A stretch of 64,000 bases of DNA from Pristiophorus japonicus (lineage: Eukaryota), in assembly GCF_044704955.1 (NCBI RefSeq), contig NC_091994.1, forward strand, positions 87,110,001 to 87,174,000, read 5' to 3'. The stretch's first letter is position 1. Every line of letters begins with the position of its first letter. The notes beneath the pieces were generated by a model. The model did not search any database. It was not told the origin of the DNA and worked only from the letters and a program-made list of their open reading frames with translations. A program made the position numbers and the translations under genes. Below are positions 149 through 44,129 of the stretch, piece by piece.

Positions 149-321
149 CGTGGCTTGTGCAGCTACAGGGAGACGGCAAAAAAGAAGTAAAAAGAAACAG
201 AAAGGTGACGTCACAGCCAAAGGGGTAAGTGATTGGCTGGTGAATGGTGAGTAGTTTTTCTTTCTTCTCTTTAACAGTGAGTAAACTTTAACATTGTTGT
301 TGCCTATCTAAAGGTTAAGTC

Positions 322-1262
322 ATGGCAGAAGAGCTCGGTCGCGTGTTATGCTCCTCCTGTACCATGTGGGAACTCAGATACGACTCCAGTGTCCCTGACG
401 ACTACATGTGCGGGAAGTGTATCCATCTCCAGCACCTGACGGTCCGCGTTGCGGAGTTGGAGCTGAGGGTGGATTCACTCTGGAGCATTCACGATGCTGA
501 GAATGACGTGAGTAGCACGTGTAGCGAGTTGGTCATACCACAGGAGAAGGGTCCACAGCCAGATAGGGAATGGAAGACCAACAGGAAGAGTAGTGCAAAG
601 AAGGTAGTGCAAGGGTCCCCTGTGGTCATCCCCTTGCAAAACAGATACACTGTTTTGAGTACTGTTGAGGGAGATGATTCATCAGGGGAGGGCAGCAGCA
701 GCCAAGGTCATGGCACCGTGGCTGGCTCTGTTGTACAGGAGGGCAGGAAAAAGAGTGGGAGAGCGATACTGATAGGGGATTCAATTGTTAGGGGAATAGA
801 TAGGCGCTTCTGCGGCCGCAACCGAGACTCCAGGATAGTATGTTGCCTCCCTGGTGCAAAGGTCAAGGATGTCTCGGAGCGGGTGCAGGACATTCTAAAA
901 TGGGAGGGAGAACAGCCAGTTGTAGTGGTGCACATTGGTACCAACGACATAGGTAAAAAAATGGATGAGGTCCTACAAAACGAATTTAAGGAGCTAGGAG
1001 CTAAATTTAAAAAGTAGGACCTCAAAAGTAGTAATCTCGGGATTGCTACCAGTACCACGTGCTAGTCAGAGTAGGAATCGCAGGATCGCGCAGATGAATA
1101 CGTGGCTTGAGCAGTGGTGCAGCAGGGAGGGATTCAAATTCCTGGGGCATTGGAACCGGTTCTGGGGGAGGTCGGACCAGTACAAACCGGACGGTCTGCA
1201 CCTGGGCAGGCCGGAACCAATGTCCTAGGGGGAGTGTTTGCTAGTGCTGTTGGGGAGGAGTT
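322..1262 (+). pseudogene. CR1 ORF1 (CxxC..CxxC zinc finger, coiled coil, SGNH esterase), frameshifted
   Basis: CSSC..CGKC, then IGDSIVRG, CLPGA, HIGTND and DGLHL motifs split over ORFs 322..1017 and 1043..1228. Confidence 0.9.
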
Positions 1263-4249
1263 AATATGGCAGGGGAATGGGCACCAATGGAGGGAGACAG
1301 AGGGAAACAAAAAGGAGACAAAAGCAAAAAACAGAAAGGAGATGAGAAAAAGTGGAGGGCAGAGAAACGCAAGACAAAGAACAAAAAGGGCCACTATACA
1401 ACAAAATTCTAAAAGGACATGGGTTGTTAAAAAAACAAGCCTGAAGGCTTTGTGTTTTAATGTAAGGAGTATCCGTAATAAGGTGGATGAATTAACTGTG
1501 CAAATAGATGTTAACAAATATGATGTGATTGGGATTACGGAGACGTGGCTCCAGGATGATCAGGGCTGGGAACTCAACATCCAGGGGTATTCAACATTCA
1601 GGAAGGATAGAATAAAAGGAAAAGGAGGTGGGGTAGCATTGCTGGTTAAAGAGGAGATTAATACAATAGTTAGGAATGACATTAGCTTGAATGATGTGGA
1701 ATCTATATGGGTAGAGCTGCAGAACACCAAAGGGCAAAAAACGTTAGTGGGAGTTGTGTACAGACCTCCAAACAGTAGTAGTGATGTTGGGGAGGGCATC
1801 AAACAAGAAATTATGGGTGCATGCAATAAGGGTGCAGCAGTTATAATGGGTGACTTTAATATGCACATAGATTGGGCTAACCAAACTGGAAGCAATACGG
1901 TGGAGGAGGATTTCATGGAGTGCAAAAGGGATGGTTTTCTAGACCAATATGTCGAGGAACCAACTAGGGGGGAGGCCATCTTAGACTGGGTGTTGTGTAA
2001 TGAGAGAGGATTAATTAGCAATCTCGTTGTGCGAGGCCCCTTGGGGAAGAGTGACCATAATATGGTGGAATTCTGCATTAGGATGGAGAATGAAACAGTT
2101 AATTCAGAGACCATGGTCCAGAACTTAAAGAAAGATAACTTTGAAGGTATGAGGCGTGAATTGGCTAGGATTGATTGGCGAATGATACTTGAGGGGTTGA
2201 CTGTGGATGGGCAATGGCAGACATTTAGAGACCGCATGGATGAACTACAACAATTGTACATTCCTGTCTGGCATAAAAATAAAAAAGCGAAGGTGGGTCA
2301 ACCGTGGCTATCAAGGGAAATCAGGGATAGTATTAAAGCCAAGGAAGTGGCATACAAATTGGCCAGAAATAGCAGTGAACCCGGAGACTGGGAGAAATTT
2401 AGAACTCAGCAGAGGAGGACAAAGGGTTTGATTAGGGCAAGGGAAAATGGAGTACGAGAAGAAGCTTGGAGGGAACATTAAGACGGATTGCAAAGGTTTC
2501 TATAGATATGTAAAGAGAAAAAGGTTAGTAAAGACAAATGTAGGTCCCCTGCAGTCAGAATCAGGGGAAGTCATAACGGGGAACAAAGAAATGGCGGACC
2601 AATTGAACAAGTACTTTGGTTCGGTATTCACTAAGGAGGACACTAACAACGTTCCGGATATAAGAAGGGTCAGAGGGTCTAGTAAGGAGGAGGAACTGAG
2701 GGAAATCCTTATTAGTCGGGAAATTGTGTTGGGGAAATTGATGGGATTGAAGGCCGATAAATCTCCAGGGCCTGATGGACTGCATCCCAGAGTACTTAAG
2801 GAGGTGGCCTTGGAAATAGCGGATGCATTGACAGTCATTTTCCAACATTCCATTGACTCTGGATCAGTTCCTATCGAGTGGAGGGTAGCCAATGTAACCG
2901 CACTTTTTAAAAAAGGAGGGAGAGAGAAAACAGGGAATTATAGACCGGTCAGCCTGACATCGGTAGTGGGTAAGATGATGGAATCAATTATTAAGGATGT
3001 CATAGCAGCGCATTTGGAAAGAGGAGACATGATAGGTCCAAGTCAGCATGGATTTGTGAAAGGGAAATCATGCTTGACAAATCTTCTGGAATTTTTTGAG
3101 GATGTTTCCAGTAGAATGGACAAGGGAGAACCAGTTGATGTGGTATATTTGGACTTTCAGAAGGCTTTCGACAAGGTTCCACACAAGAGATTAATGTGCA
3201 AAGTTAAAGCACATGGGATTGGGGGTAGTGTGCTGACATGGATTGAGAAATGGTTGTCAGACAGGAAGCAAAGAGTAGGAGTAAATGGGTACTTTTCAGA
3301 ATGGCAGGCGATGAGTAGTGGGGTACCGCAAGGTTCTGTGTTGGGGCCCCAGCTGTTTACACTGTACATTAATGATTTAGACGAGGGGATTAAATGTAGT
3401 ATCTCCAAATTTGCGGATGACACTAAGTTAGGTGGCAGTGTGAGCTGCGAGGAGGATGCTATGAGGCTGCAGAGTGACTTGGATAGGTTAGGTGAGTGAG
3501 CAAATGCATGGCAGATGAAGTATAATGTGGATAAATGTGCGGTTATCCACTTTGGTGGTAAAAACAGAGAGACAGACTATTATCTGAATGGTGACAGATT
3601 AGGAAAAGGGGAGGTGCAACGAAACCTGGGTGTCATGGTACATCAGTCATTGAAGGTTGGCATGCAGGTACAGCAGGCGGTTAAGAAAGCAAATGGCATG
3701 TTGGCCTTCATAGCGAGGGGATTTGAGTACAGGGGCAGGAAGGTGTTGCTACAGTTGTACAGGGCCTTGGTGAGGCCACACCTGGAGTATTGTGTACAGT
3801 TTTGGTCTCCTAACCTGAGGAAGGAAATTCTTGTTATTGAGGGAGTGCAGCGAAGGTTCACCAGACTGATTCCCGGGATGGCGGGACTGACCTATCAAGA
3901 AAGACTAAATCAACTGGGCTTGTATTCACTGGAGTTCAGAAGAATGAGAGGGGACCTTATAGAAACGTTTAAAATTCTGATGGGTTTAGACAGATTAGAT
4001 GCAGGAAGAATATTCACAATGTTGGGGAAGTCCAGAACCAGGGGTCACAGTCTAAGGATAAGGGGTAACCCATTTAGGACCGAGATGAGGAGAAACTTCT
4101 TCACTCAGAGAGTGGTGAACCTGTGGAATTCTCTACCACAGAAAGTTGTTGAGGCCAATTCACTAAATATATTCAAAAAGGAGTTAGATGTAGTCCTTAC
4201 TACTAAGGGGATCAAGGGGTATGGCAAGAAAGCAGGAATGGAGTACTGA
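1263..4249 (+). pseudogene. CR1 ORF2 endonuclease/reverse transcriptase, interrupted
   Basis: [32 protein letters not shown] and KFADDTK motifs across three ORF pieces. Start coordinate approximate. Confidence 0.93.
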
Positions 4250-23274: not shown

Positions 23275-23329
23275 AAAATCAGAACTGGAGTCGCAATCCT
23301 ACCGCCTGTCCTTGTCCTGAATCAGCTCT

Positions 23330-24118
23330 TTAATCAGAAGGCTATGGGTTCAAGTCCCACTCCAGGACTTGAGCACACACATCTAGGCTGACACTCCCAG
23401 TGCAGTGCTGAGGAAGCGCTGCACTGTCAGAGATGCCGTCTTTTGAATGAATCTTTAAACCGAGGCCCCCTCTGCCCCCTCAGGTGGATGCAAAAAATTC
23501 CATGGTACTATTTCGAAGAAGAGCAGGGGAGTTCTCCCCAATGTCGAGGGCCAATATCTATCCCTCAATCAGCATAACAAAAACAGATTATCTGGTCATT
23601 ATCACCTTGCTGTTTTTGGGAGCTTGCTGCGCGCACATTGACTGCTGCGTTTCTCACATTACAACAGTGACTACACTCCAAAAAGTACTTCATTCGCTTC
23701 TCGGCCTTTTGGCTAAGATCATGCGTAACTGACCTGACAGGGGAGTAGCCACCATGACCTCCGGGTGGTTCTCCCTGGATCAGGAAGGTATATGCTTGCT
23801 TTTTTGGAAACAGAAGGTGGGTGGGGTGGCTTGACCCATCCACCTCCACGGAGGTGTGTGGGGGACCTGACCTATCCACCTCCATGGCACGAACCTGGTA
23901 TTGCAGTACTTCCAGGAACGGTGCAGTGGCTCTAGGCCTTTTGGCGAAGAGCATTGGCGCAGAGTGATCCTTGGCGTGTGCAAGGTGACCTCTGGCGTTT
24001 GTGATTTGACAAAGAGTTGGAACGATTGGCTACGAATTTCAAAAAAAAAATTCGCTGTAAAGCACTTTGAGGCATATGGTGGTCGTGAAAGGCGCTATAT
24101 AAATCCAAGTCTTTCTTT
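23330..24118 (+). mobile_element. Deu-type tRNA SINE (SacSINE1-like), interrupted by the snRNA-derived insertion
   Basis: GGTTCAAGTCCC B box and colinearity with the uninterrupted copy at 52958-53375; resumes at 24051 with GCTGTAAAGCACTTTG...GGCGCTATATAAAT. Confidence 0.85.
23692..24056 (+). mobile_element. Chimeric U2/U1 snRNA-derived retroposed element (SINEU-like) with poly(A) and TSD
   Basis: 23694-23721 equals U2 nt 2-29; 23728-23784 resembles U1 nt 3-57; 23799-23925 resembles the U2 Sm site, SL III (twice) and SL IV; 23929-23953 is a second U2 5' end; A10 at 24041-24050; ATTCGCT on both sides. Confidence 0.88.
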
Positions 24119-24608: not shown

Positions 24609-25137
24609 ATGGCGGCGGCGGAGTGCGAGCCGGAGTGGAGCGGCTTTTTCTCGGACTGCGTGCCACCACCCAATGCCGACCTCTCGTCGCAGGCAATGGC
24701 CGAGTTCGCGGTGCGGCACGCCGAGCAAGGCCGCAGGGTGGTGCTGGTGACCTCGGGCGGCACCAAAGTGCCGCTGGAGTCGCGGACCGTGCGCTTCCTG
24801 GACAACTTCAGCAGCGGCTGGCGCGGCGCCGTGTCGGCCGAGTATTTCCTGGACCTGGGCTACGCCGTGATCTTCCTGCACCGCCACCGCTCGCTCTACC
24901 CTTTCTCCCGGCGCTACTCCGGCCTCAACATGTTGGACGCGCTGCAGGCCGTGCTGGACGTCGGGACCACCCGCTGGCGGGTGGAAGCCGACCAGGCGGT
25001 GCTGCCCGACATCGTGCCAGTGCTGCAGCGCTACATGGCCGTGCGAGAAGCCGGCACGCTGCTGCCCGTGGAATTCAACACCTTGTCCGACTATCTGTAC
25101 CTACTGAGGGCGGCGGCTCAGGCGCTCAACTGCATCG
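24609..25137 (+). CDS. PPCS: Phosphopantothenate--cysteine ligase, exon 1
   Basis: VVLVTSGGTKVPLE..VRFLDNFSSG..YAVIFLHR; ATG at 24609 in GTTATGG context; donor gtacag, phase 1. Confidence 0.96.
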
Positions 25138-40948: not shown

Positions 40949-43900
40949 ATAGAAACATAGAAAATAGGTGCAGGAGCAGGCCATTCGGCCCTTCTAGCCT
41001 GCACCGCCATTCAATGAGTTCATGGCTGAACATGCAACTTCAGTACCCCATTCCTGCTTTCTCGCCATACCCCTTGATCCCCCTAGTAGTAAGGACTACA
41101 TCTAACTCCTTTTTGAATATATTTAGTGAATTGGCCTCAACAACTTTGTGGTAGAGAATTCCACAGGTTCACCACTCTCTGGGTGAAGATGTTTCTCCTC
41201 ATCTCAGTCCTAAATGGCTTACCCCTTATCCTTAGACTGTGACCCCTGGTTCTGGACTTCCCCAATATTGGGAACATTCTTCCTGCATCTAACCTGTCTA
41301 AACCCATCAGAATTTTAAACGTTTCTATGAGGTCCCCTCTCATTCTTCTGAACTCCAGTGAATACAAGCCCAGTTGATCCAGTCTTTCTTGATAGGTCAG
41401 TCCCACCATCCCGGGAATCAGTCTGGTGAACCTTCGCTGCACTCCCTCAATAGCAAGAATGTCCTTCCTCAAGTTAGGAGACCAAAACTGTACACAATAC
41501 TCCAGGTGTGGCCTCACCAAGGCCCTGTACAACTGTAGCAACACCTCCCTGCCCCTGTACTCAAATCCCCTCGCTATGAAGGCCAACATGCCATTTGCTT
41601 TCTTAACCGCCTGCTGTACCTGCATGCCAACCTTCAATGACTGATGTACCATGACACCCAGGTCTCGTTGCACCTCCCCTTTTCCTAATCTGTCACCATT
41701 CAGATAATAGTCTGTCTCTCTGTTTTTACCACCAAAGTGAATAACCTCACATTTATCCACATTATACTTCATCTGCCATGCATTTGCCCACTCCCCTAAC
41801 CTATCCAAGTCGCTCTGCAGCCTCATAGCATCCTCCTCACAGCTCACACTGCCACCCAACTTAGTGTCATCCGCAAATTTGGAGATACTACATTTAATCC
41901 CCCCGTCCAAATCATTAATGTACAATGTAAACAGCTGGGGCCCCAGCACAGAACCTTGCGGTACCCCACTAGTCACCACCTGCCATTCTGAAAAGTATCC
42001 ATTTACTCCTACTCTTTGCTTCCTGTCTGACAACCAGTTCTCAATCCATGTCAGCACACTACCCGAAATCCCATGTGCTTTAACTTTGCACATTAATCTC
42101 GTGTGGGACCTTGTCGAAAGCCTTCTGAAAGTCCAAATATACCACATCAACTGGTTCTCCCTTGTCCACTCTACTGGAAACATCCTTAAAAAATTCCAGA
42201 AGATTTTTCAAGAATGATTTCCCTTTCACAAATCCATGCTGACTTGGACCTATCATGTCACCTCTTTCCAAATGCGCTGCTATGACATCCTTAATAATTG
42301 ATTCCATCATTTTACCCACTACTGAGGTCAGGCTGACCGGTCTATAATTCCCTGTTTTCTCTCTCCCTCCTTTTTAAAAAAGTGGGGTTACATTGGCTAC
42401 CCTCCACTCGATAGGAACTGATCCAGAGTCAATGGAATGTTGGAAAATGATTGTCAATGCATCCGCTATTACCAAGGCCACCTCCTTAAGTACTCTGGGA
42501 TGCAGTCCATCAGGCCCTGGGGATTTATCGGCCTTCAATCCCATCAATTTCCCCAACACAATTTCCCGACTAATAAGGATTTCCCTCAGTTCCTCCCCCT
42601 TACTAGACCCTCTGACCCCTTTTATATCCGGAAGGTTGTTAGTGTCCTTAGTGAATACCGAACCAAAGTACTTGTTCAATTGGTCCGCCATTTCTTTATT
42701 CCCCGTTACGACTTCCCCTGATTCTGACTGCAGGGGACCGACGTTTGTCTTTACTAACCTTTTTCTCTTTACATATCTATCGAAACTTTTGCAATCCGTC
42801 TTAATGTTCCCTACAAGCTTCTTCTCGTACTCCATTTTCCCTGCCCTAATCAAATCCTTTGTCCTCCTCTGCTGAGTTCTAAATTTCTCCCAGTCTCCGG
42901 GTTCGCTGCTATTTCTGGCCAATTTGTATGCCACTTCCTTGGCTTTAATACTATCCCTGATTTCCCTAGATAGCCACGGTTGAGCCACCTTCCCTTTTTT
43001 ATTTTTACGCCAGACAGGAATGTACAATTGTTGTACTTCATCCATGCGGTCTCTAAATGTCTGCCATTGCCCATCCACAGTTAACCCCTTAAGTATCATT
43101 CGCCAATCTATCCGAGCCAATTCACGCCTCATACCTTCAAAGTTACCCTTCTTTAAGTTCTGGACCATGGTCTCTGAATTAACTGTTTCATTCTCCATCC
43201 TAATGCAGAATTCCACCATATTATGGTCACTCTTCCCCAAGGGGCCTCGCACAACGAGATTGCTAATTAATCCTCTCTCATTACACAATACCCAGTCTAA
43301 GATGGCCTCCCCCCTAGTTGGTTCCTCGACATATTGGTCTAGAAAACCATCCCTTATGCACTCCAGGAAATCCTCCTCCACCGTATTGTTTCCAGTTTGG
43401 TTAGCCCAATCTATGTACATATTAAAGTCACCCATTATAACTGCTGCACCCTTATTGCATGAACCCCTAATTTCCTGTTTGATGCCCTCCCCAACATCAC
43501 TACTACTGTTTGGAGGTCTGTACACAACTCCCACTAACGTTTTTTTGCTCTTTGGTGTTCTGCAGCTCTACCCATATAGATTCCACATCATGCAAGCTAA
43601 TGTCCTTCCTAACTATTGCATTAATCTCCTCTTTAACCAGCAATGCTACCCCACCTCCTTTTCCTTTTATTCTATCCTTCCTGAATGTTGAATACCCCTG
43701 GATGTTGAGTTCCCAGCCCTGCTCATCCTGGAGCCACGTCTCCGTAATCCCAATCACATCATATTTGTTAACATCTATTTGCACAGTTAATTCATCCACC
43801 TTATTACAGATACTCCTTGCATTAAGACACAAAGCCTTCAGGCTTGTTTTTTTAACACCCTTTGTCCTTTTAGAATTTTGATGTACAGTGGCCCTTTTTG

Positions 43901-44006
43901 TTCTTTGCCTTGGGGTTCTCTGCCCTCCACTTTTCCTCATCTCCTTTCTCTCTTTTGCTTTTGTCTCCTTTTTGTTTCCCTCTGTCTCCCTGTATTGGTT
44001 CCCATT
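40949..44006 (-). mobile_element. CR1 (HER1-like) LINE, 5'-truncated, in a UTP3 intron
   Basis: Reverse complement of about 1270-4340; ORF2 broken by several 1-3 nt indels; sense orientation relative to UTP3. Confidence 0.96.
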
Positions 44007-44129
44007 GATTGTGTGTGCTGACTGCCTGAGGGATGCTAAATTCAGTTGCTGTGTCCCTATTGTAGCCTCACCCAAGAATCAAACCGGAGAATTATTTAAG
44101 AATTACAACTCGGAAACAGTCCGTTTGGC

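Follow-up and report, generated by a model that had tools for sequence, protein, structure and literature searches.

The closest described counterparts of the element analysed here are the SINEU retroposons, which the relevant sections of PMC4494074 report from crocodilians only and whose transcription they call an open question (a section of PMC5786205 repeats the SINEU definition). As those sections of PMC4494074 present them, SINEU-1, -2 and -3 resemble the shark element in being U1/U2-derived mosaics of less than 500 bp with a poly(A) tail and repeated head replacement, and also in their internal duplication, tandem insertions, internal oligo(T) and Tx1-clade partner. They differ in that the shark SINE has other junctions and another tail, and in that shark copies lie at U2 +1 in U2 arrays; the LINE partner targets Mariner-N4 in the case of SINEU, according to the same sections, and U2 in the shark. 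Since junctions and tail differ, the shark SINE probably originated independently of crocodilian SINEU, as judged from the published descriptions.

Two other systems are relevant. Keno and Utopia are non-LTR retrotransposons that target U2 and, in the sections of PMC4640811 concerned with their insertion sites, have the same U2 3' flank as the shark insertions; Utopia insertions lack the 5' U2 fragment upstream, as do those in the shark arrays, and Keno is described as having an APE endonuclease, which the shark LINE also has. In contrast to Keno and Utopia, the shark SINE is non-coding and has no 3' sequence in common with its LINE, while the shark LINE carries a U2-like head of its own and has insertions outside U2 as well. 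For candidate source genes behind a captured promoter, the nearest parallel is the R2 SIDE, a non-autonomous element that sits at the site of its LINE in a multicopy RNA gene and uses transcription of the host gene; as described in part of PMC3414825, R2 SIDEs are deletion derivatives of the LINE that are released from a Pol I co-transcript through ribozyme cleavage. The shark SINE, by contrast, is made of snRNA parts, would itself start at +1 and spreads genome-wide. It can also be likened to Alu, a SINE derived from the RNA of an RNP, whose source lineage keeps its fold and whose reverse transcription is primed on an internal A-tract, whereas the internal Pol III promoter of Alu and its binding of SRP9/14 do not apply to the shark SINE. 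Our search of openly accessible literature returned no report of a shark SINEU family or of U2-promoter capture, and such a family may be recorded in Repbase, subscription journals or the PMC4494074 supplement.

The element lies in a window of 64,000 nucleotides (the whole stretch of DNA analysed) from the Japanese sawshark, Pristiophorus japonicus (GCF_044704955.1, NC_091994.1, positions 87,110,001 to 87,174,000, forward strand), whose genome size is 5.9 Gb. The only Rfam match above its cut-off in the window was U2, at 23693-23931 (53 bits, cut-off 46); matches to Prion_pknot and mir-3155 scored below their gathering scores and were discounted. Comparison with the sawshark's own U2 and U1 genes resolved the locus into a retroposon at 23693-24049, of about 350 nt plus poly(A) and with a 7-bp target duplication, in which the segments run in the order U2 1-29, U1 3-57, a linker, the Sm region of U2, two copies of SL III, SL IV, another U2 piece (7-29), a tail and poly(A). 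On the plus strand, in window coordinates, its features are:

23329..23691, resuming at 24057-24115, +, host repeat split by the element (approximate ends)
23692..23698, +, 5' copy of the target site duplication, 7 bp, overlapping the element's first bases by microhomology
23693..23721, +, U2 nt 1-29 head (SL I), identical to own-genome U2 genes from nt 2
23722..23732, +, U2/U1 junction, replacing the branch-point-pairing sequence and the Keno cut site
23728..23784, +, segment derived from U1 nt 3-57, with an extended hairpin at 23733-23784 and the U1-70K loop replaced
23800..23807, +, U2-derived Sm-like U-tract (23800-23805) plus GG, without the A that precedes the shark U2 site
23813..23847, +, U2 SL III copy 1, a 13-bp stem in the subfamily, one pair of which is broken here by a private change
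23850..23883, +, U2 SL III copy 2, a tandem duplication (36-bp) that is missing in one subfamily
23887..23924, +, U2 SL IV, with a 13-nt loop (23899-23911) free of subfamily-level change and a weakened lower stem
23929..23952, +, second U2 5' fragment (nt 7-29), a strengthened hairpin
23956..23997, +, tail hairpin, apparently duplicated from family B's short tail hairpin (see below)
23998..24040, +, 3' tail, for which the consensus fold shows no structure
24041..24049, +, poly(A) tract
24050..24056, +, 3' copy of the target site duplication

The element thus has the features of the SINEU class: it is headed by an snRNA, shorter than 500 bp, non-coding and ends in poly(A). There is no tRNA-like head from which an internal Pol III promoter could be recognised, and it contains internal U-tracts, so that it does not fit a classical Pol III SINE. 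Nor does the window copy look like a functional U2 gene, as both the branch-point-pairing sequence and stem IIa are absent, and no snRNA upstream promoter region is found at this copy, which is embedded in a different repeat and flanked by a target duplication; only copies in U2 arrays have one. The window copy is a dispersed, decaying SINE copy rather than a variant snRNA gene. U4 and U6 were considered as sources of the tail and rejected as unproven, the matches being weak (shuffle p 0.012-0.07 among eight comparisons). We take the surrounding host repeat to be DeuSINE/SacSINE1-like; at L021, a SINE has inserted in another copy of this repeat, a few bases from the equivalent of the window site. 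Elsewhere in the window, the first coding exon of PPCS (phosphopantothenate-cysteine ligase; 24609-25136, plus strand) lies about 560 bp downstream of the element and is 100% identical to Japanese sawshark and 85-91% identical to other sharks and most rays. Two CR1-like LINE copies (319-4249, plus; 41137-44078, minus) contain endonuclease and RT frames interrupted by stops or frameshifts.

Genome-wide, the 21-nt head motif gave 2,354 exact matches and its reversed control none, and the best 40 genome hits to the element were 98-100% identical to it. Markers for the window's own subfamily and for the newest subfamily group matched 430 and 468 times, a subfamily head carrying GUAGUA had 226 exact matches, and the marker of an older family B, which consists of U2 with a short deletion, a second head and a short tail, matched 468 times. 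Among 35 siblings of the window copy, 26 are identical to their majority sequence; the window copy itself has four private changes relative to them, three of which break or weaken stem pairs, and on these grounds we regard it as decaying. Target duplications of at least 7 bases flank 77 of 109 distinct copies, although a few of the long calls are tandem artefacts. Before counting, we collapsed a cluster on C7 (226-239 Mb, L115-L135) that had been considered as a source array: its copies share flanks that are not U2, and reflect segmental duplication of one older copy. Target sites show a preference for A or C, then A-T. L1, for which the target pattern is TT/AAAA, was rejected as the partner, as the sites lack this pattern. 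One site in a host repeat has been struck repeatedly by independent copies, often in tandem (L010, L011, L017, L132, L193, L287, L289, L294).

Taken together, these data almost certainly place the element in a family of U2/U1/U2 mosaic SINEs, SINEU-like in kind and comprising many young subfamilies. In a few places, additional U1 or U2 fragments precede SINE copies, as if template switching were in progress (L143, L091, L100, L076); at L143 the addition is U1 1-45, placed before a family B copy. Such additions are what one would see if the whole collection consisted of U2/U1 chimeras that had each arisen separately, as retropseudogenes, through template switching. That idea is refuted, however, by the junctions and diagnostic changes common to hundreds to thousands of copies, and we give it practically no weight.

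An intact, young LINE that could serve as a partner for this family lies within a U2 array, at L102:1029-6860 (C1003) on the minus strand. Its two open reading frames (581 and 1147 aa) include APE, RT and zinc finger domains, with a CCHC motif in ORF1. Its insertion point is U2 37/38, where a 16-bp duplication accompanies it, and it has its own U2-like 5' head, which is followed by an octamer-like motif, the octamer being an enhancer element of snRNA genes. In the arrays this LINE replaces U2 1-37 seamlessly, and tandems have formed. All 40 scored hits to its 3' UTR are at 99-100%. When 30 LINE 3' ends were fetched, U2 from nt 38 onwards followed in 11 and a SINE copy followed directly in eight, seven of which share the target motif; SINE copies at the LINE's site also occur within family B copies (L114, L165). 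The SINE therefore has target sites in common with a Tx1-clade LINE, the clade name resting on domains and target. We found no resemblance between the SINE tail and the LINE 3' UTR, and no alignment of the tail hairpin to the Keno 3' UTR. Given its APE and RT domains, its insertion in U2 and its 3' flank of U2 38 onwards, there is a strong case that the partner LINE is a Keno-type Tx1 element.

The U1-like hairpin, both SL III copies, SL IV and the U-tract lie where the initial annotation had placed them, and the fold of the whole element is more stable than all 100 of 100 shuffles (z -4.6). To assess individual hairpins we took the genes of the same genome as reference and generated 3000 random mutants of each parent gene with an equal number of changes. 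The U1 hairpin went from -21.3 kcal/mol in the parent to -28.4 kcal/mol (fraction of mutants at least as stable, 0.0013), and the second U2 head, which had been overlooked in the initial annotation, from -8.2 to -14.4 kcal/mol (0.0003). For SL III, the parental -13.4 kcal/mol became -20.9 and -19.0 kcal/mol in copies 1 and 2 (0.0003 and 0.006), while SL IV weakened from -14.1 to -11.6 kcal/mol (0.65), the slices for SL III and SL IV being one base short in this test, which handicaps the element. The claim that stems are preserved or strengthened thus applies to the U1 hairpin and to both SL III copies, making four of five hairpins with the second U2 head, but not to SL IV. Likewise, the U1-like hairpin had been described as longer than U1 SL I: its inner stem already exists in the shark U1 gene from which it was inherited, and the novelty is confined to a basal extension and an insertion of 3 nt. 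The U1-70K loop is indeed lost in the element, but the loop of this species from which it departs is GAUCAAGAAG, as seen in SL I of 20/20 fetched U1 genes (L055-L070), and not AUCACGAA. In one subfamily the U1 hairpin has been remodelled by indels, with a 9-bp basal stem retained. The SL IV loop (23899-23911) is two bases away from both shark U2 types seen and is closer to the Rfam consensus, which may go back to an older allele of U2 or to selection.

The history of the family offers a way to separate constraint from decay. In an alignment of 157 copies extracted by BLAST, alleles present in at least four copies were taken to represent the source lineage and single-copy alleles to represent neutral decay; the tests excluded CpG transitions and any allele found in two or three copies, as well as 19 copies of the remodelled subfamily in the U1-hairpin columns (45-87). 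At 154 stem sites we counted 10 shared and 65 private alleles, compared with 29 shared and 13 private at 33 terminal-loop sites. Restricting the count to snRNA-homologous stems and merging linked changes gave 5 shared to 53 private, against 17 to 12 in loops (p 1.1e-6), although shared changes are not independent, so that p-values of this kind are overstated. In the SL IV loop there were no shared and four private changes (p 0.015-0.044). Three shared alleles were classified as breaking a pair: two represent an A-A mismatch in the oldest subfamily, changed to G-C in later ones, and the third arose as an artefact of the alignment. There is one real pair loss, a G-U to U-U change in SL III copy 2, which is the majority state. 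The subfamily-defining changes thus avoid stems and the private ones do not, which bears out the proposal of the initial annotation that the source RNA evolved under selection for structure; stems were very probably constrained in the source lineage of the SINE.

The covariation that had been suggested as a check on this proposal was not found: across 12 representatives, RNAalifold detected two-sided change in 0/71 pairs, with a covariation term of +0.89. The lack of two-sided covariation would be expected if the stems had instead been perfected by a mutational process, such as template switching between hairpin arms or loop slippage, and duplications and indels among the changes, together with loops that are runs of G or C, point the same way. 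However, private changes strike stems and loops equally (65/154 and 13/33 sites, or 0.42 and 0.39 per site), indicating that mutation is unbiased between them, and 44 of the 62 private stem changes that were classified break a pair. As it is the inherited changes alone that avoid stems, and as the SL IV loop is spared, we consider a purely mutational origin of the stems improbable, and selection on the RNA the better reading.

What this selection may preserve is less clear-cut. GUAGUA, stem II and the sequence pairing with the 5' splice site had been reported as lost, which holds for the window copy but not family-wide, as fully read family B copies retain GUAGUA and stem IIa. With at least 226 copies retaining GUAGUA, in addition to these family B copies, the argument that the element was avoiding splicing activity is weak. 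Avoidance of self-insertion is at least as good a reason for the change, since the altered stretch is the LINE cut site and the partner LINE's own head is changed there too; such protection is incomplete, LINE copies being found at that position in one SINE and in another LINE head. The loss of the branch-point sequence likely reflects replacement of the Keno cut site by the U1 fragment more than splicing avoidance. The U1-derived junction (23728-23738) resembles the branch-point consensus, CURAC, and the newest subfamily (array copies at L238) has another form that fits this consensus; the resemblance may be due to chance.

The Sm-like site reported to remain is present as a U-tract, which has no shared changes, but the window copy lacks the A found just before this tract in the shark U2 gene. 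An A before the U-tract is part of the Sm consensus; 11 of 136 aligned copies have it and 125 do not, and the newest subfamilies have regained it. Sm assembly is accordingly doubtful for the window's subfamily. Binding of U2B''/U2A' to the SL IV loop, which we take to be their site, is plausible, with chances a little under even, and the absence of shared changes in the loop is consistent with it.

These same observations bear on the possibility that the source is a host-maintained variant snRNP, carrying Sm and U2B''/U2A' and selected against splicing activity, with the dispersed copies as its pseudogenes. The unchanged SL IV loop and U-tract, the U2 gene context of the array copies described below and the A regained in the newest subfamilies would all suit such a gene. 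It is difficult, on the other hand, to reconcile with rapid subfamily turnover, poly(A), an insertion that disrupts U2 at the LINE's site, the GUAGUA retained in 226 matches and in family B, or the Sm A that most aligned copies lack, and we judge it distinctly improbable. Where the initial annotation had proposed a parasitic or variant snRNP rather than a neutrally decaying pseudogene, the parasitic part stands; the parasite is a retroposon family and not a variant snRNP gene, and this particular copy is decaying neutrally.

Copies with a U2 promoter region were found in the U2 arrays, where full-length SINEs of the newest subfamily replace U2 nt 1-37 and start at +1 behind the U2 upstream region, using the same +1 site and junction as the intact Keno-like LINE. 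At C19:69.62-69.73 Mb (L228-L238), the 17 units with a U2 upstream region comprise five with a SINE and 11 with the LINE's U2-like head, in both cases from +1, and one intact U2. Each SINE unit read here consists of the upstream region, a full-length SINE at +1, poly(A) and U2 38-191, with no leftover U2 1-37 ahead of the SINE. SINEs occupy 2/142 units of C4309, 137 of which are intact, and 0/44 units of C1003. U2 genes of the C9 type have an intact head in 10/10 units seen; there, family B fragments follow LINE 3' ends in 5/22 stretches and A-type copies in none. C4309, C1832 and C1868 may be unplaced parts of one array. Parasites cluster at one array segment, LINE or SINE being present in 16 of the 17 C19 units, with other segments mostly intact. 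The genome has two U2 gene types that differ in upstream region and SL IV (L031, L103), one in a 770-bp tandem array (C19, C1003, C4309) and one widely spaced (C9), which are possibly stage-specific sets.

One array variant links these units to dispersed copies. Of its 19 genomic copies, 16 sit in U2 array units and three are dispersed, with 0 differences. All 16 array-unit copies begin at element position 1, and in 15 of them 60/60 upstream bases match a U2 gene, the remaining one lying at a contig end; two of the three dispersed copies have target duplications and none is followed by U2 38 onwards. A sister array variant has 201 matches, and 30/30 of those fetched are dispersed. Two haplotypes can be told apart among the array copies, which may all go back to one or two founder insertions. 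They are candidate source genes, and the array/dispersed pattern is as expected if a U2 promoter had been captured and the RNA primed on its internal A-tract. We consider it quite likely, from the arrangement of the sequences, that the SINE has captured U2 promoters, and infer that copies moved from array to dispersed sites.

The main competitor to this view is transcription of the SINE from the promoter of a flanking repeat or host gene, as proposed for crocodilian SINEU, with the array copies as dead ends at the Keno site. Certain host repeats do harbour copies again and again, with tandem accumulation, and 5' extensions derived from flanks are reported in a section of PMC4494074. Furthermore, in the arrays read (C19, C4309, C1003, C1033 and parts of C9) the newest subfamily alone was found behind a U2 promoter, and the window's subfamily had no copy among these units. 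Yet dispersed copies, whose flanks are unrelated, begin at U2 +1 or just inside it, and it is the rarest variant that is concentrated in array units, with dispersed copies identical to it. Flanking promoters are therefore an unlikely source, if the most credible of the alternatives.

The best explanation, which we hold to be likely, is that the element is a dispersed, decaying copy of a young, snRNA-derived shark SINE whose full-length relatives lie at U2 +1, where they are likely transcribed from captured U2 promoters and likely reverse-transcribed by a Keno-type Tx1 LINE. In such a cycle, a SINE copy would insert at U2 nt 37/38, and the U2 1-29 head of this copy, which likely acts as a homology arm and so places full-length copies at U2 +1, would pair with the upstream part of the target and so bring about the seamless replacement of U2 1-37. 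The SINE-bearing unit would then spread through the U2 array, Pol II would produce SINE RNA starting at U2 +1, and Keno ORF2 would prime on the internal A-tract, generating copies at relaxed sites genome-wide. Sources whose RNA retains compact stems as well as an SL IV loop to which U2B''/U2A' likely bind would be expected to leave more offspring. In its fullest form the model has a promoter-less active SINE taking over U2 genes by means of a U2-identical head at +1 and array amplification, yielding a capped, snRNA-like RNA that keeps its U2B''/U2A' loop, has had its stems tightened under selection and hijacks Keno, which uses the same head trick; for this whole combination we see the chances as evenly balanced.

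As the family is young and offers candidate sources, several successive subfamilies and a partner LINE that is intact, it allows direct tests of promoter capture, of trans-mobilisation and of selection acting on RNA structure. Capture of the U2 promoter, together with mobilisation by Keno, would answer the open question of how SINEU is transcribed. If true, it would provide the first source-gene model for SINEU-type elements and an example of a parasite that exploits snRNP biogenesis.
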